From positions 445,307-509,306 of the forward strand of contig CP179888.1 in the NCBI GenBank assembly GCA_047456305.1: 64,000 nt of DNA, in the 5' to 3' direction. Both the position numbers and the translations under genes were made by a program. Source of the stretch: Candidatus Nealsonbacteria bacterium (GTDB taxonomy: Bacteria; Patescibacteriota; Minisyncoccia; Minisyncoccales; CAZKCU01). A model generated the notes under the pieces. The model ran no database searches. It was not told the DNA's origin and worked only from the letters and a program-made list of their open reading frames with translations. Below, in pieces: positions 7,762 to 54,936 of the stretch (position 1 is its first letter; every line of letters starts with the position of its first letter).

Positions 7762-7845
7762 AAGGGGGGCTTGACTACCCTTCTTACTTAAATTAAGCTA
7801 TAATAAAATTGAAGTTCTATAGAAAAAGGTCGAGAATTAAATAAT

Positions 7846-7937
7846 TAGATACCCGAGCCGCAGGCGAAGAAAACAGAGTTTTCTTCTTTACCTTCGCTTT
7901 CATAAATGAAAGCTCGGTGGATGATGAAGGTATCTAA
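7846..7937. repeat. composite box-hairpin repeat (small-element family) closed by a 9-bp inverted repeat
   Basis: TTAGATACC...GGTATCTAA flank ACCCGAGCCGCAGGCGAAG and ACCTTCGCT-TTCAtaaaTGAA-AGCTCGG boxes shared with the copies at 54874, 40571 and 49914. Confidence 0.6.
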
Positions 7938-7970
7938 TATCTATAACCTTATAAACCACAATCTAAAAAT

Positions 7971-8126
7971 ATGGAAGCTTATTGTGTAAAATGTAAGGCG
8001 AAAAGGGAGATAGAGAATGAGAAAGAAATAACAATGAAAGGAAAAGGAGGAACAAAAAGAAGAGCTATGACTGGAAAGTGTCCAAAATGCGGGACAAAGA
8101 TGTTCAGGATTTTAGGAAAGGCATAG
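7971..8126 (+). CDS. 51-aa zinc-ribbon protein (DUF5679-like)
   Basis: hand-translated MEAYCVKCKAKREIENEKEITMKGKGGTKRRAMTGKCPKCGTKMFRILGKA; two CxxC pairs; followed by a strong terminator. It is below the ORF-track length cutoff. Confidence 0.5.
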   Translation: MEAYCVKCKAKREIENEKEITMKGKGGTKRRAMTGKCPKCGTKMFRILGKA

Positions 8127-8156
8127 GAAAGTAAACCTGCAATACAAACCAGTTGA

Positions 8157-8192
8157 CCCAAAACCACCAGTGGTGGTTTTGGTTGTTTATTT
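8157..8192 (+). terminator. rho-independent terminator
   Basis: CCAAAACCACC-agt-GGTGGTTTTGG followed by a T-rich run. Confidence 0.6.
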
Positions 8193-8211
8193 AAAATGAG
8201 AGAAGTGAGAA

Positions 8212-8363
8212 ATGAAAGTCAGAACTAAAAATTTCAGCTTTTTTATTTTAGGAGTTTTGTTTTCTCTAAATATTTTAGCCTGGATTGCAGTTTATAATTT
8301 GAGTAAGCCCCAACTTCTCGTGGTTAACTTTTTTGATGTTGGGCAAGGTGATGCTATCTTTAT
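8212..8363 (+). pseudogene. 5' fragment of a ComEC/Rec2-like MBL-fold gene, interrupted by the element
   Basis: TM helix then VNFFDVGQGDAIFI. After ATCTTTAT the frame runs into 8 unrelated codons and a stop at 8394. Confidence 0.8.
8356..8363. other. attL core (ATCTTTAT)
   Basis: identical to 20563-20570; lies at the point where homology to MBL/ComEC proteins breaks. Confidence 0.7.
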
Positions 8364-8453
8364 TGAATGCTCTATGCTGGAATGCGGAATTTGAAGAAAT
8401 AATCAGAGTTTGAAACGCTTGACCCTTTGCCATTAAATTATTAAGCTAAAATA

Positions 8454-8612
8454 ATGGAAGAAAAAAGAGCCAGAAATTTAGAAATAATTAAAATGCGAAG
8501 GAAGAAAATCACCCTCGCTGAAATTGGAAAAGAATATAAAATAAGCCCTGCGAGGGTTTGGTATGTAGTAAAAAATACAAGGAGAAAGTTAAGAATAGAA
8601 AAGAGGACTTGA
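8454..8612 (+). CDS. 52-aa HTH regulator (sigma-70 region-4/LuxR-like)
   Basis: hand-translated MEEKRARNLEIIKMRRKKITLAEIGKEYKISPARVWYVVKNTRRKLRIEKRT; paralog of 14778-14954. Confidence 0.5.
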   Translation: MEEKRARNLEIIKMRRKKITLAEIGKEYKISPARVWYVVKNTRRKLRIEKRT

Positions 8613-8636
8613 CTTGAATTTTGTAAATGTTAAAAT
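8609..8636 (+). promoter_or_regulatory. sigma-70-like promoter upstream of the rep leader
   Basis: TTGACT, 16 nt spacer, TAAAAT. Confidence 0.45.
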
Positions 8637-8669
8637 AGAAGAAGAAAATAAAAATAAATATAGCGATTA

Positions 8670-8748
8670 TTGAGGTTTGGATAGAGAGACCTCAAGTCCA
8701 AAATAAGAATAAGAATAAAAAAATTGCTGGACTTGAGGTTTTTGTTTT
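8670..8748 (+). promoter_or_regulatory. mutually exclusive hairpins / attenuator-like terminator in the rep leader
   Basis: TTGAGGT(8670-76)/ACCTCAA(8689-95) competes with CCTCAAGTCC(8690-99)/GGACTTGAGG(8729-38), the latter followed by TTTTTGTTTT. Confidence 0.4.
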
Positions 8749-8864
8749 GAAAGAAATGAAGAAAATGAAAAAACCAAAACTCATTATTCAAACAATAAAA
8801 TCCTCCCAAAGAGAGTGGGTAGATTTTATTGATAAAATTTTAAATTGGAAACCAAATAAAGAAA

Positions 8865-10157
8865 ATGATAGAAAAAAAAGAAAATAGAAGTTCATCAAGT
8901 TCCTCATCAAGCTCAAGTTCCAGTGGTTCAATTCAAGAATTAAAAGAAGAATTAAAGAGAACCAAAGAAGAATTAGAAAGAATCAAAATTGAAAAAAAAG
9001 GCAAAGAGGTTGGAGGAGTGCTTTCTAAAAAATTCCACAAACCTATAAGACAGATAGCTAAAACAGGAAAGATGACCTATCGGGAAAAAGAGAAAACGAA
9101 GGAGGGCAAGCTCTACAAAGAGAGAAAATTCTCAATAAGCAGAGAGAAGAGTTTGACTTTGAGCTTTCCTGTTTTTAATTTAGAAAAACTGAAATTAAAA
9201 AATCCTAATTTAGATGTTGATGGACAGCGAGCTATATTTTGGATAACCGGACAAATGAAAAGGCAAAAAACCATAGCACCAGTTTTTACAAAAGAAGAAT
9301 TTTTGAGGGGGCTTGGTTTCTCTAAAAAACAGATAAGGCAGGGCGGTTATTATTCTGACAAAGCGTCTGACATTCTTCAAAACTTGTGGGACAACGAATA
9401 TGTTTTTGAAGATGAAAAAGGAATGATTCTACAATTAAGAATTCTGAAAGCTATAAAAAGACCAAAAGGAAAAGGCAAGAAAGGGGACTTGATAAAGTTA
9501 GGGGTGAATGATTTAATCGTCCCTCAACTGGTGATAGCTGGGACTTTAGACCCGAAGCTCTTGGCAAAAAGTCCCTATGTTTCTTATCCCGCCAAAATCT
9601 ATCAGGACAGAAGTTTGAGAGATGACGAGTTCAAGTTTTTGATTTATCTGTGCGGGATACAGGGGTTTGACAAATTCTATTCCATAAAAGCGACAAGCAT
9701 TCTAAAAGAAGCCGGCTGTTCAACAAAAACAGAAGCAAGAAAAAAAGACCGCAGGGAAATGCTTAATCGTCTTTTAGAGAAGGCAAAGGCAAAGGAACTC
9801 ATACAGGGTTGGAAGGTTGAAAAGGAGGATCAGGGTTTTGAAGAATGGAGGGTTGTATTGAGCTTGCCACCGCGAAAGAGAAAGCAACTGCCACAATCCG
9901 AGCTAAACAAAGAAGCGAATGAGCTTATAGAGGAAATCTTAAGGTGGGTTAAGCAGTGGGAAAAGATTGAGGGATATGAAATAACTTTTTCTGAAAAAGA
10001 AAGAAGGAAGTTCTTGGGCGATTGCGTAAAAAGATTAGGCATAGAAAGGGTGGAAGAGCTGTTTGACATAGAGAGGCAATCGCTTTACCCCAACGCTCTA
10101 CAATTTTTAACACAAGAGCTGTCTGCTGAATTACAGATAAAAGGATTGGATTATTGA
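8865..10157 (+). CDS. candidate replication initiator (Rep) of the element
   Basis: 430-aa orphan ORF with poly-Ser and coiled-coil N-terminus; its stop overlaps the first of five iterons. No family recognised by eye. Confidence 0.4.
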   Translation: MIEKKENRSSSSSSSSSSSSGSIQELKEELKRTKEELERIKIEKKGKEVGGVLSKKFHKPIRQIAKTGKMTYREKEKTKEGKLYKERKFSISREKSLTLSFPVFNLEKLKLKNPNLDVDGQRAIFWITGQMKRQKTIAPVFTKEEFLRGLGFSKKQIRQGGYYSDKASDILQNLWDNEYVFEDEKGMILQLRILKAIKRPKGKGKKGDLIKLGVNDLIVPQLVIAGTLDPKLLAKSPYVSYPAKIYQDRSLRDDEFKFLIYLCGIQGFDKFYSIKATSILKEAGCSTKTEARKKDRREMLNRLLEKAKAKELIQGWKVEKEDQGFEEWRVVLSLPPRKRKQLPQSELNKEANELIEEILRWVKQWEKIEGYEITFSEKERRKFLGDCVKRLGIERVEELFDIERQSLYPNALQFLTQELSAELQIKGLDY

Positions 10158-10331
10158 TGATTTGGTCAGGAATTGTTGATGATCTGGTCAAAATTATTGA
10201 TGATTTGGTCAAAATTATTGATGATTTGGTCAGGATTTTTGCCTCCTGATTTTTGGAAAAAATAAGGATATTTTCCAGATTTTGTTCTTAAAAATAGTGG
10301 AAATATGCCAAAATTACTGATGATTTGGTCA
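10153..10331 (+). repeat. iteron array (5 direct copies of RTTGATGATYTGGTCA)
   Basis: copies at 10153, 10175, 10196, 10217 (21-22 bp spacing) and 10316; followed by AT-rich DNA with AAGTATAAA and GAACGAACG duplications. Confidence 0.8.
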
Positions 10332-10628
10332 GAGAAAAAACAGCAGACCAAAGGAAAGTATAAAGTAAAGTATAAAAAACTTTACAAAGTTTATTAAAGT
10401 TTTTGTTTTATTTTTTTAAAAGCGAACGAACGGGCTTATAAGAAACGAACGAGGCAACAAAGATAGTTAGCTAAAAATTCCGAAAACCCTATATGAATCA
10501 TAAAGAGTTTTCTTCCGATGTCGGAAAATACAAACAAAAAAAAAGCTGTTCTTACAAACAGCACAAAAAAACACTTTTTTTAGTTTTAATGCTTAATTTC
10601 TTTTTAACACGATTTTAAAAAAGGTCAA

Positions 10629-10644
10629 GTGAACCCAGGTTCAC
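10629..10644. promoter_or_regulatory. palindromic operator-like site GTGAACC-ca-GGTTCAC
   Basis: 15 nt identical to 14595-14609; sits just upstream of the PC4-like gene promoter. Confidence 0.45.
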
Positions 10645-10685
10645 AACTCTTGACCCTTCTTGTCAAGAGTATAGAATTAAAATCA

Positions 10686-10922
10686 ATGCCTGAAAATAAC
10701 AAGGAAAAAGTCGTTGGAGAGATAGCCAAAAATTCCCTTGAGAAAGTGATTATTTCGCTTCGTGAGTATCGGGAAAGGCAGTTGGTAGACATTCGCACTT
10801 ATTATCAGAATGACAAAGGCGAATGGCTTCCTACCAAGAAGGGAATTAGCTTGAATTCCGAGAATTATCCCGAGCTGAAACAAGGAGTTTTGGCTTTAGA
10901 GGAAGCAATTAAAGATTTTTAA
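10686..10922 (+). CDS. PC4/p15-like (YdbC-like) ssDNA-binding protein
   Basis: SLREYRERQLVDIRTYYQNDKGEWLPTKKGISL matches the PC4 family core. Start moved to the ATG at 10686, which follows a TTGACC-16-TAGAAT promoter. Confidence 0.6.
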   Translation: MPENNKEKVVGEIAKNSLEKVIISLREYRERQLVDIRTYYQNDKGEWLPTKKGISLNSENYPELKQGVLALEEAIKDF

Positions 10923-10925
10923 CTT

Positions 10926-11102
10926 ATGCGAATTTTTAAGACCAAAACGCCACCGGTAAAAGTTGAAAAAGAGGAAATAAAAAAGCCCCAACACAAGAGC
11001 GCATTTTTCTTTGTTGACCGATATTATCGCCAGAAAGAGTTTGAAGAAATGTTGGAAAAGGACATAGATGCGAAGGCGTTTTTTGGAGATAGTAAGTTTT
11101 AA
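10926..11102 (+). CDS. hypothetical 58-aa protein
   Basis: hand-translated MRIFKTKTPPVKVEKEE...; starts 3 nt after the upstream stop. Confidence 0.3.
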   Translation: MRIFKTKTPPVKVEKEEIKKPQHKSAFFFVDRYYRQKEFEEMLEKDIDAKAFFGDSKF

Positions 11103-11114
11103 TCTTGCGTTTTT

Positions 11115-11309
11115 ATGGCAAAATTTTTAATAACAATTCTTATCTTGATTCTGCTTTTTCTCTGGTTTTACTTTATGGCACAAAAGAAGAAAGAGCCAGA
11201 AACAAAAAAACAAGTTTTTCATTCTGAAGCTGAACGAAAATTTTTCCAAGTTCCGAGTGAGGAGGAGCTGGAACAAAGAGAAGAACAAGAAAAAAAGAAA
11301 ACTATTTAA
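11115..11309 (+). CDS. hypothetical small membrane protein
   Basis: ORF track; one N-terminal TM helix and an acidic tail. Confidence 0.4.
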   Translation: MAKFLITILILILLFLWFYFMAQKKKEPETKKQVFHSEAERKFFQVPSEEELEQREEQEKKKTI

Positions 11310-11345
11310 AAGGTCGCAGGAAACAATAAAATCGTCAAACTAATT

Positions 11346-11522
11346 ATGCCAACAATTAAGGAATTATTAGAACAAATCAAGGATAAAGCTGACGAAGTTG
11401 AAGAAAAACTGGAGGGAAAATACCCCCCACAAGGATACCCGACACCTCCGAAGGGCTATAAGCCACCAAAAGACGAGGTTGAAAAAGATGACGAAGAGGA
11501 AGAAGAGGAATCAGAAGAATAA
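11346..11522 (+). CDS. hypothetical 58-aa acidic protein
   Basis: hand-translated MPTIKELLEQIKDKADEVEEKLEGKYPPQGYPTPPKGYKPPKDEVEKDDEEEEEESEE; AAAAGGTCG motif ~30 nt upstream. Confidence 0.3.
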   Translation: MPTIKELLEQIKDKADEVEEKLEGKYPPQGYPTPPKGYKPPKDEVEKDDEEEEEESEE

Positions 11523-11574
11523 ATAAAAAAGAGATTCTAAAAGGTTGAATAATTAAAAATTAAGTTTTAAAAAA

Positions 11575-12063
11575 ATGGGAACATTCGTAAATTTTAGAAC
11601 CGAAAAAGACCCCGAAGAAAAATCTTTAGCACACCATTTAAAAATGGGAAAAAAGCGACAAGGCACTTCTCCTCCAGAGGAGCTTTACAAATTGGAAAAT
11701 CACCGAGAGGAAAAAAAAGTTGAACAAGCAAAAAATTTTGACCAGATAATAAATTCCCAAATGGGAGTCAGATTTGGGCAAGATGAGAAAATTTATCACA
11801 ATTTGTCAGAACTGAAAGTTGATCAAAAACTGAAAAGGGATTTTGGACTTTCCGAATTTGATGATAGCAATGAAGTGGAATTATCTGATTCCGAAGAAAA
11901 AATTGATGAGCAAAAATTTGAAAGGCAAACTGGTTTCAATTTGGCAGAATTAGAAGAAGATGAGCAACAAAAACAAAACTTGATGGAGGATTTTCAAGAA
12001 TTAGAAGACGAAAAGTTATGGGGTTCGCCAAGCGATTTGGAGGTTGAATTTGAAGAGGGATAA
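11575..12063 (+). CDS. hypothetical acidic protein
   Basis: ORF track; AAAAGGTTG motif upstream. It contains one inverted iteron-like TGACCAGAT sequence. Confidence 0.45.
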   Translation: MGTFVNFRTEKDPEEKSLAHHLKMGKKRQGTSPPEELYKLENHREEKKVEQAKNFDQIINSQMGVRFGQDEKIYHNLSELKVDQKLKRDFGLSEFDDSNEVELSDSEEKIDEQKFERQTGFNLAELEEDEQQKQNLMEDFQELEDEKLWGSPSDLEVEFEEG

Positions 12064-12080
12064 GAATTCAATGAGAGAGT

Positions 12081-12109
12081 TTGAAAAGCAGTTAAAATTC
12101 GCCTATAAA
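12081..12109 (+). promoter_or_regulatory. sigma-70-like promoter at the start of the ORF-free region
   Basis: TTGAAA, 17 nt spacer, TATAAA. Confidence 0.45.
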
Positions 12110-12115
12110 TAATAT

Positions 12116-12546
12116 ATCAATCCTTAAGAATTAAATTATACCCGGTTCAATCGCTGTTTCTAACTCTCGCCCGAGTTAAAAGCTAAAGAATTTCACCCAA
12201 GCTTTAAGTTTGGGTGAGAGTTGGAGGCAGTTTTGAGAGCCAGATGTTTTGACAGGGGGTTGGGTTTGACCACCTCTTCAAAATTGTCCTTTTACTCTGG
12301 CTTTCTAAACTGCCACGCGCAACTCACCAAAACAAAGTCCCATTCAAAAAATGGGGCTTTCTTCCTATTTCCCCTGACGGGAAATAATTGATTTATTCCC
12401 CATCACGGGAAATGGGCTTTCTTCCTCAAAGGGGACACCCGGGTGGCTTCAAAAACACTTCTCAAGCCATTTTAAGGCACTTCTGGGCTTATTTTAAGGA
12501 AGAAAGGATACAATCCCCGAGAAGCCCCTTTAAAAGGGCTTTTTAT
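12116..12546 (+). ncRNA. candidate ~430-nt structured non-coding RNA of the element
   Basis: no ORF on either strand; end-to-end pairing UCCUUAA(12121)/UUAAGGA(12495); long imperfect helix 12218-12243/12297-12325; several local hairpins; weak terminator at 12522-12546. Confidence 0.35.
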
Positions 12547-13190
12547 ATATAGAAACATAATTTAAAAGACCTGTATCAGACAGAGGTTGACAAACCAATG
12601 TAAAAGTGTGCTTATATTTGGTATTGGCTGACTAACATTACATAGAGGAGGACGGGGAGTTTCATTATTTAATTCTCTGTTTTTTTTATGGCTTTTGTTT
12701 TAAATGTCTATTCCTTGTAAGCTACGAACTATTGAATACAGCACAAAAACAAAAGATGTTTTTGGCTTGTTTCTGGTCTTTGTTTCTCGGCATTTGAGAT
12801 TGGCGTTTCTGGGCTTCGGGTCGTGGCTATGAGCTTTCACTTAATATCCTTTGTTTTTAAATATCAATAGCTCTGTGCTCTGTGCTTTGGTATCCCTGTT
12901 ATTTGCCTTTTAGTATTATTAAGCGCCAAAAAAAAACAAGCTTGGCGGATACAAAAGAGCCCATTTTATTATTGGGCTTAACTGCTCAACCCACTTAACA
13001 GCTCATACTCAATTTGTTCTTAACGAATGAATGCGCGAAATTGCTCAATAAAATGTTTTTTGAAAAATCCTGATTTTTGAAAACAAGGTTCAAAAGTTTT
13101 TTAAGAATTAAATTCAAATGGTGGAACTATGTTTCAAAAATGGTCTGTATTTTAGCCCTGAAAGTTATCCACAATTAAGCTCATTTGTGC

Positions 13191-13219
13191 TTGACAGAGT
13201 GCTTGGCTTTTGCTAAAAT
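13191..13219 (+). promoter_or_regulatory. near-consensus sigma-70 promoter
   Basis: TTGACA, 17 nt spacer, TAAAAT; preceded by TTATCCACAATTA at 13165-13177. Confidence 0.55.
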
Positions 13220-13374
13220 AGAGGTGTAAAGAGAGTTCATTTTAAAGGTCTATTTCAACAGCTTGCGAGATTTTTATTTTGGTATATTATTAAAATTGGT
13301 GGTTCTTCATTGAATCGCTAAAGTCCCTCGTTCTGCTCGCAAGCTGTCGGGGGGCTTTTAATTAAAATAAAACT

Positions 13375-13524
13375 ATGACTATTTCAGATTTCGTAAAAGA
13401 TTTAAAAAACGAAGGACTAAACAGAAAGGAGGCATTGGAGATTTTTGAAAGCTGGCTTGACGAGAATATCGGACTTGTCTTAAGAGATGAGGCGATCAAG
13501 TTATTTGAAAAACACTATGAGTAA
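13375..13524 (+). CDS. hypothetical 49-aa protein
   Basis: hand-translated MTISDFVKDLKNEGLNRKEALEIFESWLDENIGLVLRDEAIKLFEKHYE. A 36-aa hydrophobic ORF (13517-13627) overlaps its end. Confidence 0.3.
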   Translation: MTISDFVKDLKNEGLNRKEALEIFESWLDENIGLVLRDEAIKLFEKHYE

Positions 13525-13715
13525 AAAAATCCTTTATTGGGTCGGTCTGATTTTACTGGCAATGATTATCTTTCCCTTTTTCTACGGCTTCATCTACCTG
13601 TTTCTGTTGGCTGATTTAATTATTTAGTCCCTTCACTCCGTCAGCACCTTTGGTGCTGATCGGTGAGAGGATTAAAACTTAATGGCTGATGTCAGGGTCA
13701 GCACTTTAAAAAGCT

Positions 13716-13916
13716 ATGGCTAAAATAAACATTTACTTTCAGGATTTAAATGAAAATGCCCAACAGGAGGTATGGCAAGCTGTAAAAGAAGAATTAGAGG
13801 AAGATATTAAAAATGAGATTGAGTTTCAACCTGATTTAGATCCTCAAACTATTAAATCTGAAACGATTGAAAATCATATAAACTGCCACAATTTTGCCAA
13901 CGAGTTTGTAATATAA
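13716..13916 (+). CDS. hypothetical acidic 66-aa protein
   Basis: ORF track. Confidence 0.4.
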   Translation: MAKINIYFQDLNENAQQEVWQAVKEELEEDIKNEIEFQPDLDPQTIKSETIENHINCHNFANEFVI

Positions 13917-13991
13917 CCAATCAATTCAGCCCTTCAATATCCTGATATTTGGAGGTCTGAAATTGCTTGATTATCAGCTAACAAAAGAACT

Positions 13992-14198
13992 ATGCTAATT
14001 TTCTATACCCAAGTTTCAAATCCCGATAGCGAAAAAAAGAAAAGGTTTTTGAGAATGAAACAAGCCATAGCACGGGAGTTTAAAAGAATGAAAAAGTTTG
14101 ATGAAAAAATGGTAAGCTTGGGACATAAGAAACCGGAAAAACTGATTATGAAATGCGGGCAGAACTTTCTGGCAATCCACCAGTTTAGGAGCGCATAA
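13992..14198 (+). CDS. hypothetical basic 68-aa protein
   Basis: ORF track; Lys/Arg-rich. Confidence 0.35.
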   Translation: MLIFYTQVSNPDSEKKKRFLRMKQAIAREFKRMKKFDEKMVSLGHKKPEKLIMKCGQNFLAIHQFRSA

Positions 14199-14594
14199 TT
14201 TTGCCAATTCTTTTTGGGTCGGTGAGCTTTGAATTCTTGAAGGAGCTTATCTGTTTTAAAAAAACAGAGGAGAAAATCAAAGCGAACCGATGAGGTATGA
14301 GGATTTAGACGGAGGCAAAAATGAAAAAGGGGTTTAGCAAAAGTTAGACCTACCGAACCATAGGAACAGAGGGATATTCTTTCAAGAAAAAACTAACTAT
14401 CCCAAAGCTCTTAATCCGATTGATACATAATTTTTGTTTCAAATCTTTCCAGTAGTATTTGCCGAAGTTTAAAGAGCTGTATCTCTAATAATGGTAAGAT
14501 CCATTCCGAGTAGTCGGTCAAACTATGCTTTTACAATTTCAAGAGTTGGGAGAGCAAAAGAGTTTTTGTTAGTTTTTGCTCTTTTGCTGTCCTT

Positions 14595-14610
14595 GTGAAC
14601 CCAGGTTCAA
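14595..14610. promoter_or_regulatory. second copy of the GTGAACCCAGGTTCA operator-like site
   Basis: 15-nt identity with 10629-10643; ~135 bp upstream of the HTH gene promoter. Confidence 0.45.
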
Positions 14611-14743
14611 TTATCACTATTGACCGACCAAAACCCCATTTTTAAGGATTTAGCCCAAAAACAACGCACCAGATTGCGTTTTAAGAGGATTTGAGGGCTG
14701 GGCGGTGGTTTGATACCCGGTTGCCTGCCTTGATTTTGGGGGC

Positions 14744-14771
14744 TTGACACTATCTCTTGACTTGATAGAAT
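14744..14771 (+). promoter_or_regulatory. sigma-70-like promoter giving a probably leaderless HTH mRNA
   Basis: TTGACA, 16 nt spacer, TAGAAT, ending 6 nt before the ATG at 14778. Confidence 0.5.
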
Positions 14772-14777
14772 GAAATA

Positions 14778-14954
14778 ATGAAAGAAAATATAAAACGAAA
14801 AAAGAAGATTTTGGAATTAAGGGTGAAGGGTTATCAGTTGAAAGAGATCGGGGAAGCTCTTGGAATCTCAAAGCAGAGGGTTCACCAGATTATTAGGCAG
14901 TTTCAAAAAGACCAGCACGATTTGAGGCGCTTAAAACGGAAGAAGATATTATGA
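14778..14954 (+). CDS. 58-aa HTH regulator (sigma-70 region-4/LuxR-like)
   Basis: hand-translated MKENIKRKKKILELRVKGYQLKEIGEALGISKQRVHQIIRQFQKDQHDLRRLKRKKIL. Confidence 0.55.
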   Translation: MKENIKRKKKILELRVKGYQLKEIGEALGISKQRVHQIIRQFQKDQHDLRRLKRKKIL

Positions 14955-15101
14955 CAAAAAAAAAGCCCCCCAGCAGAGAGGAGAGCTAATTGAAAATAGT
15001 TTAATTTAAGCTAATCCAACTCAAAGAAAAATAAGTCAATAAAAATAAAGTCAAAAAATAGTAATTTAATTCACACTTTTATTTTACAAATTTTAAAAAC
15101 T

Positions 15102-16073
15102 ATGTCAAACAAATCTTTAATAATTCCTACAAGTTCAATCAATAATGACCTGATAAATCCTGATGCTTTTAAAAATCAGGAAATCTTGAGTATTGTCATT
15201 GATCCAAAAAAGACCTTCAATTACTTGGACATTTCCTCCGGAAGCCGGGCTGACTACAAATACCGGTTAGGTTTGTTTCTCAACTTTATGAGAAATAAGT
15301 CATTGAGTTTGAATTGCCTGTTGGAATACAAAAGGTATTTGAAGAACTTGATAAATTACAGCACCGCTACAAAAAACCATTACCTCCTTGTGGGCTTGAA
15401 GCTCCTGCGCGAATATCACAGGCAGGGAATTTTAAAAAGAGATATAACTTCCAACATAGAACTTTTTAAAGAAGAAAAGAATAAAATGAAGGTTGAGGAA
15501 TTTAATGAGCAAGAGATGACCAAAATCCTGAATGCCTTAAAGGAATTGCCGAACACAAAAGAGAATAGTCGCCTGAAAGCGATGATGAGCTTGCTGATAT
15601 TTCAGGGCTTGAGATTGATAGAGCTGACAAGGATTGATTACCCTGCTGATGTTGATTTTGGAAATAAAATCATTCAAATTCAAGGAAAGGGTAAGGAATA
15701 CAAACAACCGGTAGATTTACACCCCAAAACTATTGCCGAGCTGAAAAAGTATGTTTCAACCAATGGAATTAAAAGCGGGTCATTGTTCTTTTGTAAGAGC
15801 AACCGCAACCTCCACCAGAAAATAACCACCTCTGGAATTAGGAAGATTATCAAGAAATTTTTGAAGAGTTTGGGAATAGACAGGAATATCCACGCATTCA
15901 GGCACTCCTTTTGCGGTATGCTGGCTCTCAACAAAAACCTGACTACGCTTGATATGGCGCAGTTCTCACGACACTCAAATCCTGCTCAATTACAGGCGTA
16001 TATTGACAGAAGAAAATTCAAATCCAAAATTCCCGAATTCTATAAATGCTTTAGAGGGTGGAATATGAGATGA
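15102..16073 (+). CDS. tyrosine recombinase / integrase (XerC/D-like)
   Basis: GLRLIEL (Arg), HAFRHSF (His-x-x-Arg) and RHSNPAQLQAY (His...Tyr) catalytic motifs. Confidence 0.85.
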   Translation: MSNKSLIIPTSSINNDLINPDAFKNQEILSIVIDPKKTFNYLDISSGSRADYKYRLGLFLNFMRNKSLSLNCLLEYKRYLKNLINYSTATKNHYLLVGLKLLREYHRQGILKRDITSNIELFKEEKNKMKVEEFNEQEMTKILNALKELPNTKENSRLKAMMSLLIFQGLRLIELTRIDYPADVDFGNKIIQIQGKGKEYKQPVDLHPKTIAELKKYVSTNGIKSGSLFFCKSNRNLHQKITTSGIRKIIKKFLKSLGIDRNIHAFRHSFCGMLALNKNLTTLDMAQFSRHSNPAQLQAYIDRRKFKSKIPEFYKCFRGWNMR

Positions 16074-16126
16074 TTGAACCAAGTTCACTTAAAAGGTCGT
16101 TTAATCAAAATTAACTAACTAATAAA

Positions 16127-16489
16127 ATGAAAGAAGAAAAAGAGATTTTACAAGAGATATTAAAATTAGAAAAGGAAGAAAAAGAAGTTGATGAAAAAAT
16201 GGAAAGTGGAAGAGTTGAAAAATTGAATATATTAAAAGGAAAATTAAATGCTTTAAGGTGGGCATTGGGAACAGGTTTTCCTACCATAGACCCATATAAG
16301 GGAATGAAAACAAACAAACAGGTCAGCCACAAAATCAAGGAAATGTCAGCAATGAAGTTCCAGATTGAACCTCTTGAATGTATGAAAGATGCCCTTCGCT
16401 GGGTTTTAGGAGAAACAGATGAAACATATTTTTTTAATGATTGGTTCAAGGAACAACTGAAAGTAGCTGAAAGGGAAAAGGATAATTAA
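16127..16489 (+). CDS. hypothetical coiled-coil protein
   Basis: ORF track; internal repeat ALRWALG / ALRWVLGE; AAAAGGTCG motif 27 nt upstream. Confidence 0.5.
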   Translation: MKEEKEILQEILKLEKEEKEVDEKMESGRVEKLNILKGKLNALRWALGTGFPTIDPYKGMKTNKQVSHKIKEMSAMKFQIEPLECMKDALRWVLGETDETYFFNDWFKEQLKVAEREKDN

Positions 16490-16583
16490 CTTTTACTGAA
16501 TTCCTGATCTGGAAATCGGGGGTTCAGATAAGAGCTGATTTTAAAAGGTCGCAAGAAAATAAAAATTAAAATAAAATTATATT

Positions 16584-16772
16584 ATGGTTAAAGAATTAGA
16601 CAAGCGAAGATTAGAACTTTTGAATTCTTTAAATGAATATTTTTTGAATAACAAAGGAGAATTGAAGGTGTTGATAAATTTTCTTGATGAATCAGCAACG
16701 GGGTGGCGGGATACTCCCTCACCGCTTTTAGAAACCTTGGTTGCTCTGGCAAAGGGATTGGAGTTAAAATAG
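16584..16772 (+). CDS. hypothetical 62-aa protein
   Basis: ORF track; AAAAGGTCG motif 33 nt upstream. Confidence 0.4.
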   Translation: MVKELDKRRLELLNSLNEYFLNNKGELKVLINFLDESATGWRDTPSPLLETLVALAKGLELK

Positions 16773-16825
16773 AGGTAGAGATAAAATTTCAAAGGTCGTT
16801 TAATAAATTAAAATAAAATAAAATT

Positions 16826-17455
16826 ATGGGAACAGAAGAAGAAAAGAAAAAAATTGAGGAAGAAGAAAGAATACGAGCAGAAGCAAGGGTTAAGGCAGAA
16901 AAAGAGCTTAAGCAAAAAGAACAAAAGAAAAAGGGTATAGGTTGTTTGGTTGTTTTAGGGCTTATTATACTTTTTGTCGTTATTATTTCTATCGGTGGCA
17001 AAGAGGATAAAAAAGCAGAACCTACCTTAACCGAACCTCCTGCTAAATCAGAACCAGTACCTCTTACTCCTGAACAAAAACTGGAATCGGCTTATATCCA
17101 ATCTTTCACAGCGATCAACAAAAATGTCGTTGAGGCATCAAATTCTTTAGGTAATCTGGTTGGAGTTAAATCTCCTATCTTATGGACAGAAGAAGAAATA
17201 ATGCTGGTGGCATTCTCAACCGTAATGCTTGAAGAATCCTACACACAGGCGAAAGAGCTTGAACCTCCCGAAAAGTTTGAAGCCGTCCATTCCCTTTTCC
17301 TATCCGGATTGTCCAAATATGCCGAAGCTATGCCACTTTTGAGAGATGGCATAGATTATTCCAATGCTGATAAAATCAACCAATCAACCGATCTTCTTAT
17401 TGAAGGAGTGAAATTTTACGAACAAGCCACAGAGAAATTAAAACTTCTTCAATAA
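16826..17455 (+). CDS. hypothetical membrane-anchored protein
   Basis: ORF track; charged N-terminus, one TM helix, extracytoplasmic domain; AAAGGTCG motif upstream. Confidence 0.5.
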   Translation: MGTEEEKKKIEEEERIRAEARVKAEKELKQKEQKKKGIGCLVVLGLIILFVVIISIGGKEDKKAEPTLTEPPAKSEPVPLTPEQKLESAYIQSFTAINKNVVEASNSLGNLVGVKSPILWTEEEIMLVAFSTVMLEESYTQAKELEPPEKFEAVHSLFLSGLSKYAEAMPLLRDGIDYSNADKINQSTDLLIEGVKFYEQATEKLKLLQ

Positions 17456-17538
17456 ATTTACGAACCCAAATAAAACCAGAGACCGGATAAGCAAAAAAAA
17501 AGGTCGTTTAGTAAATTAAATTAAAATAAAATAAAATT

Positions 17539-17787
17539 ATGAGACCTATTTTTTGGGGCTTAATCTGTTTCCTGATTGGAATGGTTGGCTGGATTGCTTT
17601 TAGTGTTATAGGTGGTCTTGGAGAAGGAATTACTGGAGAAGCTGATCCTACATTCAAAGCTTTGGTGAGCTTTTTTGGAATGATATTCTTTTTCAGCTTG
17701 CCGGTGGCAATTATCTTTGAGATTATTCGCTGGGCAAGAAAGAGAAAGAGAAGGAAAAGAGAAGGAGAGCTAAACTTGAAAAATTAA
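17539..17787 (+). CDS. hypothetical two-TM membrane protein
   Basis: ORF track; AAAAGGTCG motif upstream. Confidence 0.5.
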   Translation: MRPIFWGLICFLIGMVGWIAFSVIGGLGEGITGEADPTFKALVSFFGMIFFFSLPVAIIFEIIRWARKRKRRKREGELNLKN

Positions 17788-17797
17788 AATTCTAACT

Positions 17798-18322
17798 ATG
17801 GCAAAAGAAAGATTAAGCATTTTACAAAAAGCCATTATCACTACCTTAAGAGCTTTAGATGAAGTAGAATATAAAACTAATAAAAAGCTATTCAAAAAGA
17901 AAGCCAAACAACCTCCATACTGGCACAAATTAAGAAAGACAACTGGTGATGGAAGTATGGTGGGATCAGGTTGGATTACAGATAGGGGTTTGAAATTCTA
18001 TGTAGAGAAATGTTTGAAAGCACACTACAAACTTCCGGAATTAGATTTTAGCAATTTAGACAAAGTCAATGCTCAAGAGGAAGAAAGAATGAAGCACCCC
18101 AAATACAATTATTTTGACCATAAGCCGACAGGAAAAGTTAGTCAGCGACTTGGCTATAATATCTATCGTTCCTCCTCTTTTGATATTTCATTCAGCAGGA
18201 GTTTAAAGAGCTTATGGGAAAAGAAGTTTATAGAATGTGATTTTATTAAAAATTGGAGGAATAAGGTAGCTCAAATAAGAACAATAAAACTAACAGAGAA
18301 GGGTCTTAATGTTAAGATGTGA
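17798..18322 (+). CDS. hypothetical protein, MAKERLS paralog 1
   Basis: N-terminus MAKERLSILQKAII shared with the next ORF; C-terminal KLTEKGLNV is suggestive of a winged-helix domain. Confidence 0.5.
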   Translation: MAKERLSILQKAIITTLRALDEVEYKTNKKLFKKKAKQPPYWHKLRKTTGDGSMVGSGWITDRGLKFYVEKCLKAHYKLPELDFSNLDKVNAQEEERMKHPKYNYFDHKPTGKVSQRLGYNIYRSSSFDISFSRSLKSLWEKKFIECDFIKNWRNKVAQIRTIKLTEKGLNVKM

Positions 18323-18367
18323 GCTTCCATAATTTAACAATAAGAAATTTGAAATAGAATTGTAAAT

Positions 18368-18823
18368 ATGGCAAAAGAAAGGTTAAGCAAACTTCAGAAG
18401 TGGATAATAAGGAATTGTAATCGCTGTAAATTCTCTGGCGGGGAAGCAACTGCTATGAGTCGCAAAGACATATTGGGGTTTTTTGCCTTTGATTATGAAG
18501 CCAATGAAGAGTATGAAGAAAGAAAAAACAGAGCAGAGGCAACCATAAGCAGGAGTATAAAAAACTTAAGGTGTAAGGGTTTTATAGAAGAGTTTAGTCG
18601 TGCTATCAAAAGAGGATTTTATATGAAAAAGGAAAATGGTATCTCTATAATGGAAGAACAAATAAAGGAAACTGGTTGTTTGGATAAAAAAGAAGGAAGA
18701 GAAGAAATAAAACAATCTTTTGGGAATTCAAGATTACCTGAATATACAAAATTGATTGAATTGACTGATAAAGGAATAAAAAAAAGGAAAGAACTCTTAA
18801 AGTTAAGTTCTGACAATAGCTAA
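18368..18823 (+). CDS. hypothetical protein, MAKERLS paralog 2
   Basis: N-terminus MAKERLSKLQKWII; C-terminal ELTDKGIKKRKELL. Confidence 0.5.
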   Translation: MAKERLSKLQKWIIRNCNRCKFSGGEATAMSRKDILGFFAFDYEANEEYEERKNRAEATISRSIKNLRCKGFIEEFSRAIKRGFYMKKENGISIMEEQIKETGCLDKKEGREEIKQSFGNSRLPEYTKLIELTDKGIKKRKELLKLSSDNS

Positions 18824-18910
18824 AACTTAACAATAAGAATTAGTTGATATTCTGAAACCCTGTTAAAATAGAAAAAGAGAAAAAAATAAAAAAGTTAATA
18901 AGAAAAAATT

Positions 18911-20572
18911 ATGACCAAAGTAGCAATATACATCCGGGTCTCAACCCAGCGTCAAGAAAAAGAAGAAACAGAAAAAACTCAACTATCTAAATTAAAAGAA
19001 TATTGTAAAAAAAATGACTATCAGATAGTCAAAGAATATTCTGATGTTTGTTCAGGTGCTTATCTATCAAGAACCGCCTTAAACCAATTAAGAGAAGATG
19101 TGAAGAAAGGAATCTTTGATGTTATTTGTGTTTATGCTCTTGATAGATTATCCAGAAAATTAGGACATCAAATAGCATTGCTTGATGAATTTGAAAAAGA
19201 AGCAAAAGTTAAAGTGGAAAGTTTGGAAGAAAAATTTGAAGATAGTCCTGAAGGAATGTTAAACCGAAATATGAGAGGAGCTTTCGCTGAATATGAAAGA
19301 TATAAAATAGCCAAGCGTCTAATGGACGCAAAATGGAGCAAAGTGAAGGAAAAAAAGCTAATTGGTTGTTATCCTCCTTTCGGCTATACTAATGTTAAAA
19401 AGACAGATGACACGCCGGCTCATTTTCTAATAAACCCAAAAGAAGTTTCAATAGTTAGGTTGATATTTAAGATTTATCTTGAAACAAATAGCACTTATCA
19501 AACAGCTATTCAACTTAAGGAAATGGGAATTAAAGGCAGAGGCAGAGGCAAGGGCAAAAATGGTAAGGACAAGCCGACATCTCTTCACCCAAAAACAATC
19601 CGAGAAATGCTGAAGAATGAATCATACATTGGTAATTGGTATTATGGCAAAACCTATTGTTGCGAGGCAAAGTATCACATTAAAGAGGAAAGGAAGCATA
19701 AAATAACCGGAAGAAAAATTAGACCCAAGTCAGATTGGAAACTGGTGAAAATACCAGAAATTATTGATAAAGAAATTTTTGATAGAGTTCAAGAAAAAAT
19801 GAATAAAAAGAAAAGTGATTATTTAAAACCATCAAAAAAGCATTTTTATCTTTGTCAAAGTTTAATTAAGTGTATTCATTGTAAAAGGACTTATAGTGGT
19901 CATAAGCAAACTAACAGAAAAAGAAAAAAACCTTTCTTCACTTATTATTGTGGGCAAAAATATCCAAGAAGAAATAAGCTTGATGAAGTTGCCTGTCCCT
20001 CAAGGTCAATGGGAAGAGACAGATTGGATAATGCTGTTTGGGATTATGTTAAATCTTTGGTTAGTGATGAGAATAAAGTCAAAAAGGGAATAAAAAAATT
20101 AGCAGAGAAAAGAGAAAAAGATAGGTCATTTAATCAGAAAGTTTATAATTCTCTGATAGCTGAAAAAGGGAAACTGGAAAAAAAGAAGCAGAGATTTATA
20201 GATCTCTATGGCGATGAAAACTTCACTCAAGAAGAGATAGATAATAAAGTTTCAGAAGTCAACAGCTTACAAGAAAATTTGAATAATCAAATAAGAGAAG
20301 TAGAAAAAGAATTTCAAAAGATAGAAAATCTTAAACTAATAGAAAAGGAAATTGAAAAACTTTGTTTTAGATATAAAACTAAAATAAAAAAGAATCCAAG
20401 CCCAGAATTAAAGAAATTTATTGTCAGAAGTTGGATAAAAGAAATAAATATACTTGATGACGGAAGAGTTTTTATCAAAGCAAAATTGCCGGAATTAGAA
20501 GAAATTTCAAGGGAGAAATTAGAATTTCCCTCTCAAAAGCGTATTCCAGCACAAACTCCTCAATCTTTATAG
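18911..20572 (+). CDS. large serine recombinase (integrase)
   Basis: VAIYIRVSTQRQ (catalytic Ser), YALDRLSR, recombinase domain, Cys-rich zinc-ribbon region (CIHC...C...C) and C-terminal coiled coil; ends in attR. Confidence 0.9.
   Translation: MTKVAIYIRVSTQRQEKEETEKTQLSKLKEYCKKNDYQIVKEYSDVCSGAYLSRTALNQLREDVKKGIFDVICVYALDRLSRKLGHQIALLDEFEKEAKVKVESLEEKFEDSPEGMLNRNMRGAFAEYERYKIAKRLMDAKWSKVKEKKLIGCYPPFGYTNVKKTDDTPAHFLINPKEVSIVRLIFKIYLETNSTYQTAIQLKEMGIKGRGRGKGKNGKDKPTSLHPKTIREMLKNESYIGNWYYGKTYCCEAKYHIKEERKHKITGRKIRPKSDWKLVKIPEIIDKEIFDRVQEKMNKKKSDYLKPSKKHFYLCQSLIKCIHCKRTYSGHKQTNRKRKKPFFTYYCGQKYPRRNKLDEVACPSRSMGRDRLDNAVWDYVKSLVSDENKVKKGIKKLAEKREKDRSFNQKVYNSLIAEKGKLEKKKQRFIDLYGDENFTQEEIDNKVSEVNSLQENLNNQIREVEKEFQKIENLKLIEKEIEKLCFRYKTKIKKNPSPELKKFIVRSWIKEINILDDGRVFIKAKLPELEEISREKLEFPSQKRIPAQTPQSL
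20563..20570. other. attR core (ATCTTTAT)
   Basis: identical to 8356-8363; MBL homology resumes immediately. Confidence 0.7.
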
Positions 20573-21279
20573 TAAGCCCTCAGAGGCATCAGATTCTGAT
20601 TGATGGAGGACCGGGGCCTGCTATTTTAGAAAAATTGGCAACTGAGATGCCTTTTTATGATCGCTCTTTGGATTTAATTGTTTTAACTCACCCTGAACAT
20701 GATCACATTGCAGGTTTAATTGAGGTTCTAAAAAGATACAAAGTAGATTATATTTTGTGGACTGGCATTATTAGAAATACCTCTGAATATGAAGAATGGT
20801 TAAAGACCATTGCCCGAGAGAATGCTCAAATAAAAATAGCTAAAGCTGGCCAGAGAATAATCGCATCGAGAATGGTTCTTGATATTTTACATCCTTTTGA
20901 AAATCTTGAGGACAAAAAAGTCAAAAATAGCAATAATACCTCTATAATTTCCCATCTAATTTTTGGTAATAACTCTTTTTTATTCACTGGCGATGCTTAC
21001 AAATCAGTAGAGAAAAAACTTATTGAAAGCAAGACCAATATTGATTCTGATGTTTTAAAAGTCGGTCATCATGGGAGTAAAACTTCAAGTGCAAAAGATT
21101 TTATTGAAAAAGTATCTCCGGCAATTGCTGTAATTCAATGTGGCAAAAACAATCCTTATGGTCATCCCCGCCCTGAAACTCTTGAAACTTTAGCCAAGTA
21201 TGATATAAAAATTTTAAGAACTGATTTAGATGGCGACATAAAAATAATTTCCGACGGCACAAAAATAAAAATAAAATAA
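20563..21279 (+). pseudogene. 3' fragment of the ComEC/Rec2-like MBL-fold gene
   Basis: open frame reads IFIVSPQRHQILIDGGPGPAILEKL...LTHPEHDHIAGL...GDA...HHGS. The ORF-track start at 20635 is an artefactual TTG. Confidence 0.8.
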
Positions 21280-54925: not shown

Positions 54926-54936
54926 GTTGATAATTT

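Follow-up and report, generated by a model that had tools for sequence, protein, structure and literature searches.

The middle promoters of phage T4 carry the MotA box, (a/t)(a/t)(a/t)TGCTTtA, which is centred at -30 in nearly 60 promoters (PMC2988021). In the linear plasmids pGKL1/2 of yeast, the UCS (ATNTGA) is usually found 20-40 nt ahead of each ORF's start codon and is essential for transcription, while sequence further upstream is irrelevant (PMC6211774). The promoters of leaderless mRNAs in Actinobacteria, Deinococcus and phage lambda (cI PRM) place the -10 hexamer ~7 nt before the start codon. Activators of the stand-alone LuxR or sigma-region-4 type bind at or near -35, and GerE activates sigma-K promoters from sites overlapping -35.

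Here, we analyzed a window of 64,000 nt from a Candidatus Nealsonbacteria genome, the host of an integrated mobile element in which a box of nine bases, AAAAGGTCG, lies ~28-33 nt upstream of six small genes. The UCS of pGKL1/2 is the closest match to this layout, as a short element-specific motif in a very A/T-rich element. However, the yeast virus-like elements are eukaryotic, cytoplasmic and equipped with their own RNA polymerase and helicase, whereas no recognisable RNA polymerase was found among the genes of the bacterial element, and the UCS stands before each ORF whereas the box precedes only about a third of the genes. In T4, where sigma is appropriated, a 9-bp non-palindromic element-specific box replaces the host -35, as our box would, and a monomeric element-encoded factor reads it while the host RNA polymerase is retained. 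In contrast to the MotA box, which has an excellent -10 hexamer at 12 +/- 1 bp, our box has a different sequence and no fixed -10, its positions are relative to the ATG and not to a mapped transcription start site, and no MotA or AsiA homologues are present in the element. The element family's own TTGAC-N16-17-TAnAAT-N6-8-ATG promoters have exactly the leaderless layout, and the box-preceded genes share their -35-to-ATG distance; unlike these, the box class, which is presumed leaderless, has a recognisable -10 in only about half of its members. As for GerE, the element encodes a stand-alone three-helix HTH of 58 aa, although GerE is a dimer with a different consensus and the fold matches of the 58-aa protein are generic.

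Box copies and their leaders

The element spans ~12 kb and has ~20 genes, all on one strand. The six core copies of the box were found where the original prediction had placed them.

11308..11316, + strand: box AAAAGGTCG, last G 30 nt before ATG 11346 (gene 11346-11522)
11539..11547, + strand: box variant AAAAGGTTG, 28 nt before ATG 11575 (gene 11575-12063)
16091..16099, + strand: box AAAAGGTCG, 28 nt before ATG 16127 (gene 16127-16489) and 18 nt past the integrase stop
16543..16551, + strand: box AAAAGGTCG, 33 nt before ATG 16584 (gene 16584-16772)
16790..16798, + strand: box CAAAGGTCG, 28 nt before ATG 16826 (gene 16826-17455)
17498..17506, + strand: box AAAAGGTCG, 33 nt before ATG 17539 (gene 17539-17787)
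15102..16073, + strand: tyrosine recombinase, the marker for finding related elements

On the coding strand, these ATGs are preceded by five exact copies of the 8-mer AAAGGTCG and one AAAGGTTG variant, and the extended consensus is roughly TTyTAAAAGGTCG(C/T). The box at 11308 overlaps the TAA stop of ORF 11115-11309. A repeat search independently found a direct-repeat family of 34 nt that starts at AAAGGTCG and comprises the four copies at 16092-17532. Most start codons of the element had been predicted to carry the box, but only six of the ~20 genes do; among the nine genes with an upstream gap of 36-94 nt, six have it. The four box-preceded genes within 16127..17787 belong to no Pfam or PHROGs family.

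The window contains 8 exact copies of AAAGGTCG against 1.73 +/- 1.49 expected from dinucleotide-preserving shuffles, an excess of 4-5 times that none of 100 shuffles reached. When one mismatch was allowed, the 9-mer occurred 28 times against 25.3 in the window, without enrichment, and therefore the signal resides in the exact, positioned copies. Three stray exact matches, at 7825, 30009 and 56873, agree with the chance expectation of 1.7. Of the nine copies listed in the original prediction, three were no instances of the box. The site at 7824-7832 is followed by its next ATG only after 139 nt. The sequence at 10617-10626 reads GGTCA and directly adjoins a palindromic operator as well as a TTGACC-N16-TAGAAT promoter of canonical form. 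At 13243-13250 the sequence is GGTCT; it belongs to a 5' leader that follows a TTGACA-N17-TAAAAT promoter, and the related locus L006 does not conserve it in its homologous region.

The stretches between box and ATG, together with a neighbouring hairpin, are as follows.

11317..11345, + strand: leader to ATG 11346, 72% A+T, no Shine-Dalgarno sequence, essentially unstructured
16799..16825, + strand: leader to ATG 16826, 100% A+T, minimum free energy 0 kcal/mol
16100-16126, 16552-16583 and 17507-17538, + strand: leaders similar to 16799..16825
16490..16534, + strand: strong hairpin of 19 bp, directly after the stop of gene 16127-16489

With 72-100% A+T, the leaders are A/T-rich and not, as had been proposed, uniformly A/T-only. 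GGAGG is absent from them as predicted, but this is nothing specific to the element: of the 61 host genes in the window, only 8 have a Shine-Dalgarno sequence even by a loose definition. Its scarcity is host-wide and no peculiarity of the element, and because the host is poor in such sequences throughout, the argument from their lack carries no weight. The leaders of the 17498 and 16790 copies share 94% identity, the former with a 5-nt insertion, and the leaders at 11308, 11539 and in the related loci L003, L006 and L139 have the box alone in common. The hairpin (-21 kcal/mol, z -4.4) ends 9 nt upstream of the box at 16543, is kept in another relative, L141 (-20.4, z -4.9), and has no proper U-tract; it is a candidate terminator or 3'-end hairpin. 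This unit architecture, a conserved hairpin before the box and an unstructured stretch from box to ATG, was counted in favor of a promoter.

Conservation in related elements

In eight related loci (59 kb) found via the tyrosine recombinase, AAGGTCG occurs 17 times against 3.7 predicted by composition, and 14 of these copies lie 26-33 nt before an ORF start, again with leaders of 72-100% A+T; the box-to-ATG distance is 24-34 nt overall. An unbiased 6-mer scan of positions -45..-20 at 96 ORF starts from six close-family loci ranked GGTCGC (6 vs 0.14 expected), AGGTCG (10 vs 0.28), AAGGTC (11 vs 0.45) and GTCGCA at the top. The only other clear class was the sigma-70 -35 element, with CTTGAC at 8 vs 0.73 and TTGACA enriched too. 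Homologues of gene 11575 in L003 and L006 have the boxes AAAAGGTCG and AAAAAGTCG, respectively, with diverged leaders. L141, at 62% integrase identity, keeps the box at three orthologous junctions (1170 for 16091, 1626 for 16543 and 1873 for 16790); at the first of these the similarity starts exactly at the box, and the first three of the box-preceded genes in 16127..17787 are syntenic there. Overall, the box is retained across 51-82% integrase identity.

Enrichment of the box was seen neither upstream of the window's host genes nor in 112 loci whose integrases are more distant, and of 120 unrelated viral contigs that contain the 15-mer AAAAGGTCGTTTAAT, none showed the box-to-ATG arrangement. 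These results support the predicted specificity of the box to this family of integrative elements. Taken together with the shuffles and the scan, they bear out the claim that the box is not a product of chance: it is non-random, strand- and position-specific, and conserved across diverged relatives.

Position at the -35 hexamer and candidate reader

Canonical promoters of the element serve as a reference for the position of the box.

14744..14771, + strand: promoter TTGACA-N16-TAGAAT, leaderless layout, -10 hexamer ending 6 nt before ATG 14778; the positional reference
10650..10677, + strand: promoter TTGACC-N16-TAGAAT, 8 nt before ATG 10686 (PC4-like gene)
8419..8447, + strand: promoter TTGACC-N17-TAAGCT, 6 nt before ATG 8454

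In the family, seven canonical TTGAC-N16-17-TAnAAT promoters begin between -34 and -38 relative to the ATG and leave 6-8 nt between the end of the -10 hexamer and the ATG, while AAAGGTCG starts at -31 to -41 with both median and mode at -35. The position of the box coincides with that of the canonical -35 hexamer. A -10 hexamer is less evident. It is recognisable at -12..-7 in only about half of the box instances (partly by eye), such as TAAAAT before ATG 16826, and none was found at a fixed distance from box or ATG. For TAnnnT, weak peaks (4/15 each) were seen at +6 downstream of the box and at -12 relative to the ATG, neither of them significant in so A/T-rich a sequence. Counted against a promoter were this want of a fixed-distance -10 hexamer, the 24-34 nt spread, which is wide for a -35 element if every transcript starts at the ATG, and the read-through across boxes that would be expected from the close upstream genes (see below).

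The original prediction left a promoter, a processing site and a translation signal side by side; the sequence alone cannot separate these mechanisms, but the positional evidence favors a promoter or transcription signal. Our best reading, about as likely to be right as wrong, is that the box takes the place of the -35 hexamer in element-specific promoters, as a specificity signal or activator site. The box would occupy the -35 position of promoters that do not have the TTGACA hexamer, and would be read by the 58-aa HTH or by another element or host factor.

14778..14954, + strand: stand-alone HTH of 58 aa, sigma-70 region 4 / LuxR type
8454..8612, + strand: second small HTH of 52 aa, resembling sigma-70 region 4

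In all close relatives, the 58-aa HTH gene immediately precedes that of the integrase; these loci form one clade and were chosen through the adjoining integrase gene, and the proposed link between HTH and box comes from their co-occurrence there. It scores 30.7 bits against Pfam Sigma70_r4 (cut-off 24.1) and 21.6 against GerE, just under the cut-off of 23.5. Among solved structures, its best natural matches are region 4 of WhiG, FliA, RpoD and SigA, all weak, and the fold search, with matches including GerE, DesR, EsrB, WhiG and SigF, returned generic HTH only and no match at E <= 0.001. The invariant recognition helix of the 58-aa HTH reads SKQR(V/I)xQI, compared with TRERIRQI in E. coli sigma-70. 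The non-palindromic form of the box agrees with a reader that is monomeric or is tethered to RNA polymerase, and the 58-aa HTH might be that reader.

Alternative roles of the box

An RNA-level signal is possible but rather unlikely. The box would then be contained in the 5' UTR of transcripts that are longer and in part polycistronic, as a processing site that sets the mRNA 5' end, or as a protein or ribosome standby/enhancer site for Shine-Dalgarno-independent translation. At four of the six boxes in the window, only 0-18 nt separate the upstream stop codon from the box, and no terminator intervenes. Read-through transcripts would thus include the box as RNA, and with all genes on one strand it is probably transcribed. 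The fixed box-ATG distance suits a translation-linked role equally well, the host must use other initiation signals, the leaders are unstructured and A/U-rich, and the hairpin upstream of the 16543 box could shield a processed 3' end. However, the host genes are likewise SD-less and do not have the box, whose position is that of the -35 hexamer in the canonical promoters. The complementary sequence CGACCTTT is absent throughout the element, and none of the element's genes was recognised as coding for a known endoribonuclease or RNA-binding protein. In addition, a distance of 28-33 nt from the ATG puts the box at the margin of the region that the ribosome usually contacts, or outside it.

Less probable still is an operator, at which an element or host regulator would co-regulate the cargo, for example by silencing it during integration, with the A/T-rich sequence around the box as the true promoters. 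Position and conservation argue for it as they do for a promoter, and at least two small HTH proteins are among the element's products. Weak sigma-70-like pairs also overlap the 5' half of the box, but at two sites only (TTTAAA-16-TAAAAT at 11305-11332 and TTCAAA-17-TAAAAT in L141). Moreover, the box is a single 9-mer without a second half-site, whereas the obvious operator of the element is different and palindromic, GTGAACCCAGGTTCAC.

Integron-like insertion or exchange of small gene cassettes at the boxes by the adjacent tyrosine recombinase is disfavored and seems very improbable. Small unrelated genes that vary between relatives do lie directly downstream of the recombinase with the same short sequence before each, and the relatives L001 and L138 share longer junction blocks ahead of genes of very different size (173 aa and a 412-aa methylase/Mrr fusion, respectively). 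However, no inverted repeats flank the boxes, and there is no GTTRRRY-like core, because the bases after the box differ between copies (CAAG, CAGG, CATA, TTTA). The recombinase and the array share one orientation, the boxes at 11308 and 11539 lie 4-5 kb from the recombinase, and the spacing follows the downstream ATG and not the upstream stop, which is 0-54 nt from the box. Finally, a box without function, stemming from recently duplicated leader segments or arising by chance where DNA is A/T-rich, is essentially refuted and scarcely credible: the two 94% identical leaders indicate that some copies are paralogous and the one-mismatch 9-mer is at chance level, but the excess of exact copies, the leaders that share only the box, its persistence among diverged integrases and its absence from the unrelated contigs all stand against it.

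Taken all together, the box is a real gene-start signal, and most likely a cis-acting transcription signal at the -35 position that is specific to this element family. As a promoter box, it would work at the DNA level when transcription initiates. Every cargo gene behind a box would then form a small transcription unit of its own, with the mRNA 5' end at the ATG or a few nt before it, and translation of the leaderless or nearly leaderless transcripts would begin in an unstructured, A/U-rich region and proceed without a Shine-Dalgarno sequence.

The element and its genes

The box occurs in an element that splits a ComEC/metallo-beta-lactamase-like gene and carries all of its own genes on the + strand.

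Features of the element in the window
roughly 8.39-20.63 kb (+), the element, ~12.2 kb
8212-8394, N-terminal piece of the split ComEC/metallo-beta-lactamase-like gene, flanking the element
8454-8612 (+), very small HTH protein resembling sigma-70 region 4, 52 aa
8865-10157 (+), Rep-like protein, 430 aa
10686-10922 (+), PC4-like protein
14778-14954 (+), very small HTH protein resembling sigma-70 region 4, 58 aa
15102-16073 (+), tyrosine recombinase (integrase)
18911-20572 (+), large serine recombinase, at the right end of the element
20635-21279, C-terminal piece of the split gene, flanking the element

Considering that the two halves of the ComEC-like gene flank the element and that a serine recombinase gene lies at its right end, we regard it as an integrated, plasmid-like unit. 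An NCBI protein encoded on a MAG contig matches the tyrosine recombinase at 100% identity. The remaining element proteins scanned matched no family in Pfam or PHROGs, and none of the box-preceded genes has a PHROGs family. The Rep-like protein, likewise without a match in Pfam or PHROGs, has no relatives in plasmid and phage databases, in which the integrase gave one weak match only. When the integrase and a 209-aa protein were searched against viral contigs, no relatives were found, and the homologue search with a 68-aa core protein returned only the protein itself. In Rfam, a tRNA-Pro was the only match in the window, with nothing credible in 7500-21500 at E-values up to 1.

Several sequence features of the element were observed apart from the box. 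About five direct repeats of TTGATGATTTGGTCA at 10150-10335, just 3' of the Rep-like gene, look like plasmid iterons. The palindrome GTGAACCCAGGTTCAC, probably an operator of an HTH dimer, is present at 10628-10643, adjoining the promoter of the PC4-like gene, and in a second copy (...TTCAA) at 14595-14609, inside a conserved non-coding region, where it is kept in relatives (alignment columns 417-430). A perfect DnaA box, TTATCCACA, at 13165-13173 is followed by a TTGACA-N17-TAAAAT promoter (13191-13219); the related locus L006 conserves the stretch holding both, with an identical promoter and eight of nine DnaA box positions. The ~150-nt leader before gene 13375 contains a long-range hairpin in which 13261-13272 pairs with 13337-13348, and 13040-13375 is possibly an origin or regulatory region. 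The adjacent proteins of unknown function at 17798-18322 and 18368-18823, which have neither a box nor a family match, are probably paralogues, judging from their common N-terminus MAKERLS(I/K)LQK. L125, another locus of a related recombinase, shares 90% identity with the element over 41 nt at 18365-18405.

The box in the window and in related elements

The exact 8-mer core AAAGGTCG of the box AAAAGGTCG was found eight times in the window, compared with 1.73 +/- 1.49 expected, and none of 100 dinucleotide-preserving shuffles reached eight copies, which bears out the original prediction of a non-random motif at gene starts. Five exact copies, together with the variant AAAGGTTG at 11540, are found in intergenic gaps of the + strand, each at a similar distance from a start codon.

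Boxes before element genes (+ strand), with the distance from the last G of the box to the A of the ATG
ATG 11346, 30 nt
ATG 11575, 28 nt
ATG 16127, 28 nt
ATG 16584, 33 nt
ATG 16826, 28 nt
ATG 17539, 33 nt

Four of these boxes were independently recovered by a repeat search as a 34-nt direct-repeat family starting at AAAGGTCG. The motif had been described as preceding most element start codons; it precedes only six of about 20 genes, which are six of the nine genes with an upstream gap of 36-94 nt. The segments between box and ATG are unstructured and consist of 72-100% A+T, and, as predicted, they lack a Shine-Dalgarno (SD) sequence. This lack is not special to the element: among 61 host genes in the window, just 8 carry an SD even by a loose definition, so that the absence of SD sequences is a trait of the host. 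Host upstream regions are A/T-rich. Two kinds of G+C-rich repeats were seen in the 40 nt before host start codons. The first, gggcgagcgactaacttagtaa[tc]accact, lies at 44515-44554 and 50721-50760, before ATG 44555 and ATG 50761, and the second, (c)gaagggtgaagaa-like, lies at 37174-37213 and 54887-54926, before 37214 and 54927; a more distant gagggtgaagga lies at 23903-23942, before 23943.

The three further exact copies (7825, 30009 and 56873), two of which are inside ORFs, are in line with the chance expectation. As a one-mismatch 9-mer search of the window gave a chance-level count (28 vs 25.3), the analysis was restricted to exact, positioned copies. The six copies before ATGs 11346 to 17539 stood, and three others that had been listed as instances did not. 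The copy at 7824/7825 was rejected on context, as the next ATG is 139 nt away and a canonical promoter lies upstream, and it fits the chance count. This stray copy (7824-7832) is located in the leader of a 51-aa zinc-ribbon gene (7971-8126). The leader is ~150 nt long, contains a long hairpin (~7849-7937, gatacc...ggtatc) and comes after a TTGACT-N17-TATAAT promoter (window 7773-7970); Rfam gave no match. The copy at 10617/10619 (GGTCA), which adjoins the palindrome GTGAACCCAGGTTCAC and a TTGACC-N16-TAGAAT promoter, was also rejected on context. The GGTCT copy at 13243, part of a leader 3' of the TTGACA-N17-TAAAAT promoter, was rejected because it is not retained in the homologous region of L006, in which the promoter is perfectly kept. 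No complementary RNA partner CGACCTTT was found within the element, and literature searches with the motif string returned unrelated primer matches only.

The recombinase family has 14 members in the protein collection, and scans of contigs, genomes and metagenomes extended it to 141 loci. Close relatives are L001 (= L002, L058, L099), L003, L006, L138, L139, L140 and L141, with recombinase identities of 51-82%. They have a common core of the 68-aa protein, ~550 nt of conserved non-coding DNA, the 58-aa HTH protein and the recombinase, and the flanking small genes mostly differ from relative to relative.

Boxes before genes in close relatives
L001, three (two of them variants, GGTCA and AAAAGTCG)
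L006, three (one of them AAAAGTCG)
L141, three
L003, one
L138, one
L139, one

Of the 17 copies of AAGGTCG in 59 kb from the close family, 14 lie 26-33 nt before an ORF start; composition predicts 3.7 copies in total. An unbiased 6-mer enrichment at positions -45 to -20 of 96 ORF starts from six close loci ranked GGTCGC (6 vs 0.14 expected), AGGTCG (10 vs 0.28) and AAGGTC (11 vs 0.45) at the top; the only other clear class was CTTGAC (8 vs 0.73), with TTGACA enriched too, which is the sigma-70 -35 hexamer. High information content was confined to AAAAGGTCG; an extension rich in T on its 5' side and, 6 nt downstream, a tendency to TAAAWT were both weak. A homologous gene starting with MG(T/V)F has the box in the window, L003 and L006 despite differing leaders. 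L141 is syntenic with 16074-16830 and retains all three boxes, and at its first junction the similarity starts exactly at the box, with unrelated sequence upstream. This footprinting comparison supports selection acting on the box itself.

No upstream enrichment of the box was seen for host genes in the window, and among 112 low-GC loci with more distant recombinases (out of 131 further loci) the box was not enriched (3 vs 1.26 expected). In viral contigs, the pattern TAAAAGGTCGCANNATTAAAA gave no matches, and AAAAGGTCGTTTAAT gave 120 single random matches in unrelated contigs, which served as a negative control; none of the 120 showed an A/T-rich leader with an ORF start 22-37 nt further on. 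A strong GTAGTAAGTA signal in the wider integrase family was rejected as a motif, since it comes from orthologous 5' leaders of the integrase or PC4-like gene and thus reflects shared ancestry instead of an independent motif at each gene. The ~10-fold enrichment of GTAGTA/GTAAGT k-mers in the wider family has the same kind of source. In L008-L137, whose recombinases are 42-45% identical, a canonical promoter precedes the recombinase or PC4-like gene (e.g., L060 2934 and L086 2193), followed by conserved leaders with AGTAGTAAGTA(ATAAGTA) repeats and, in some, GGAGG; these repeats are possibly an autoregulatory or arm-type site.

Position of the box and readings of its role

The element family also has canonical promoters of the form TTGAC(A/C)-N16-17-TAnAAT (n=7), mostly before regulator genes. 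Their -10 hexamer ends 6-8 nt before the ATG, a layout that is classical for leaderless mRNAs.

Genes with canonical promoters in the element family
Window, 8454, 10686 and 14778
L001, 4929
L006, 9809 and 12235
L139, 1495

Measured from the ATG, the start of TTGAC is at -34 to -38 in these seven promoters, and that of the 8-mer AAAGGTCG ranges from -31 to -41, both its median and its mode being -35. The box and TTGAC, which exclude each other, thus share one position ahead of start codons. Most simply read, the box would take the place of the -35 hexamer in a second promoter class, one that would rely on a factor distinct from region 4 of the primary sigma. The box at this position reads AAAGGT(CG) and bears no resemblance to TTGACA; in a promoter consensus scan just two of the box sites were flagged, on account of a weak TTTAAA or TTCAAA that overlaps the box at its 5' edge. 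Upstream of the 16543 box, a 19-bp hairpin at 16490-16534 (-21 kcal/mol, z -4.4; conserved in L141, -20.4 kcal/mol, z -4.9) ends 9 nt before the box and lacks a proper U-tract. The order of hairpin and box is the one to be expected where an upstream gene ends and a new transcription unit follows. The promoter reading is further supported by the unstructured segment between box and ATG and by the box being non-palindromic.

The original prediction offered a promoter, a processing site or a translation signal. The box is indeed a real regulatory sequence that is specific to the element family, and most probably it serves cargo genes with little or no mRNA leader as a promoter or activator box located at -35. 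A role at the RNA level, as a processing site that defines 5' ends or as a translation standby site, appears rather unlikely but stays a serious rival owing to the weaknesses of the promoter reading. No -10 hexamer at a fixed place relative to the box or the ATG was found; TAnnnT occurs at many offsets of the A/T-rich leaders, its maxima, at +6 after the box and -12 from the ATG, are weak and without significance at 4 of 15 each, and a TAnnnT-like hexamer at -15 to -12 was counted, partly by manual reading, in about 9 of 18 box-class genes. The distance from box to ATG spans 24-34 nt. Four of the six boxes lie 0-18 nt after the upstream stop codon; no terminator intervenes, which makes it probable that the box is transcribed as well. 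Finally, host genes in the window do not present a clear leaderless signature (a -10 peak at -12), and leaderless expression can therefore not be claimed for the host as a whole.

An operator role of the box seems improbable. A role as a cassette junction or recombination site is disfavoured, because inverted repeats and a conserved core after the box are absent and the spacing is tied to the ATG and not to the upstream stop. A chance origin is excluded. Known classes were rejected as well: the box is not an SD sequence, as it lies 28-33 nt upstream with only AAGG inside and box genes have no SD-like tetramer at -20 to -4; nor an integron attC, as no box has an inverted repeat and the bases after it vary, unlike GTTRRRY; nor an intrinsic terminator, as box and leader are unstructured and the scan gave no terminator at any box; nor does it match a known Rfam family.

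The box would belong among mobile-element-specific promoter boxes, and T4 middle promoters and the upstream conserved sequence of yeast linear plasmids are its closest functional analogues. T4 middle promoters require MotA and AsiA; there, a MotA box of 9 bp, centred at -30, stands in for the -35 hexamer, and the -10 hexamer lies at a distance of 12 +/- 1 bp (PMC2988021). The element box is similarly short, non-palindromic and at the -35 site (relative to the ATG). However, it has a different sequence and no preferred hexamer at +12 to +14, and MotA/AsiA homologues are absent among the element proteins scanned (Pfam, PHROGs), so the likeness is only an analogy. In yeast cytoplasmic linear plasmids, the sequence ATNTGA, usually 20-40 nt before the start codon of each ORF, is essential for transcription (PMC6211774); the element box differs in sequence, and no RNA polymerase is recognisable among the element's proteins. 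Membership in either system is not supported by these comparisons.

Small HTH proteins and a conserved non-coding region

The 58-aa HTH protein (14778-14954), whose gene is conserved immediately 5' of the recombinase gene in each of the close relatives, is a candidate reader of the box. It exceeded the Pfam cut-off for Sigma70_r4 (30.7 vs 24.1 bits), and its best natural matches among solved structures were region 4 of WhiG, FliA, RpoD and SigA, all weak (E 0.017-0.75). The structure model is a confident three-helix HTH (pLDDT 86.6), whose fold matches were generic HTH domains, including LuxR/GerE-type domains and sigma region 4, none at E <= 0.001. Its recognition helix SKQR(V/I)xQI is invariant in relatives; its counterpart in E. 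coli sigma-70 is TRERIRQI. The protein might be a free-standing mimic of sigma region 4 that docks on the host RNA polymerase or its sigma factor, changing -35 recognition from TTGACA to AAAAGGTCG and giving (near-)leaderless cargo genes a private regulon; this proposal is quite doubtful, and if true, it would make the protein a minimal, one-protein form of sigma appropriation. In L140, a second small HTH protein (327-530) adjoins the family HTH. By its recognition helix LSRERVRQI, a near match to TRERIRQI of E. coli sigma-70 region 4.2, it is a free-standing region 4 look-alike with predicted canonical -35-reading residues.

Between the 68-aa gene (13992-14198) and the HTH gene lie ~530 nt (14199-14730, +) that contain only ORFs of 30-47 aa and none of at least 60 aa. 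Conservation of this region in L001, L003, L006 and L138 is 70-76%, on a par with that of the recombinase gene. From an alignment of five sequences, RNAalifold predicted 115 pairs. Of these, 26 have changes on both sides; shuffles gave 11.4 +/- 2.5, with none of 500 reaching 26, and slid controls gave 1-6. Many G-U pairs indicate the + strand, and Rfam gave no match. This covariation is consistent with a candidate new large structured RNA of the element family.

Genetic tools are lacking for CPR (Patescibacteria) bacteria, which are mostly uncultured, and to our knowledge little is known about how genes are switched on in them and in their mobile elements. The box, the leaderless-type promoters and the small HTH regulators of this 12-kb element provide a concrete hypothesis on CPR gene expression that is checkable in existing metatranscriptomes. 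The element also offers candidate parts for CPR expression tools, namely promoters, a regulator, a Rep/iteron origin and two recombinases. If the box is read by a sigma-region-4-like protein, the element would be a very compact case of a mobile element re-programming the host RNA polymerase.
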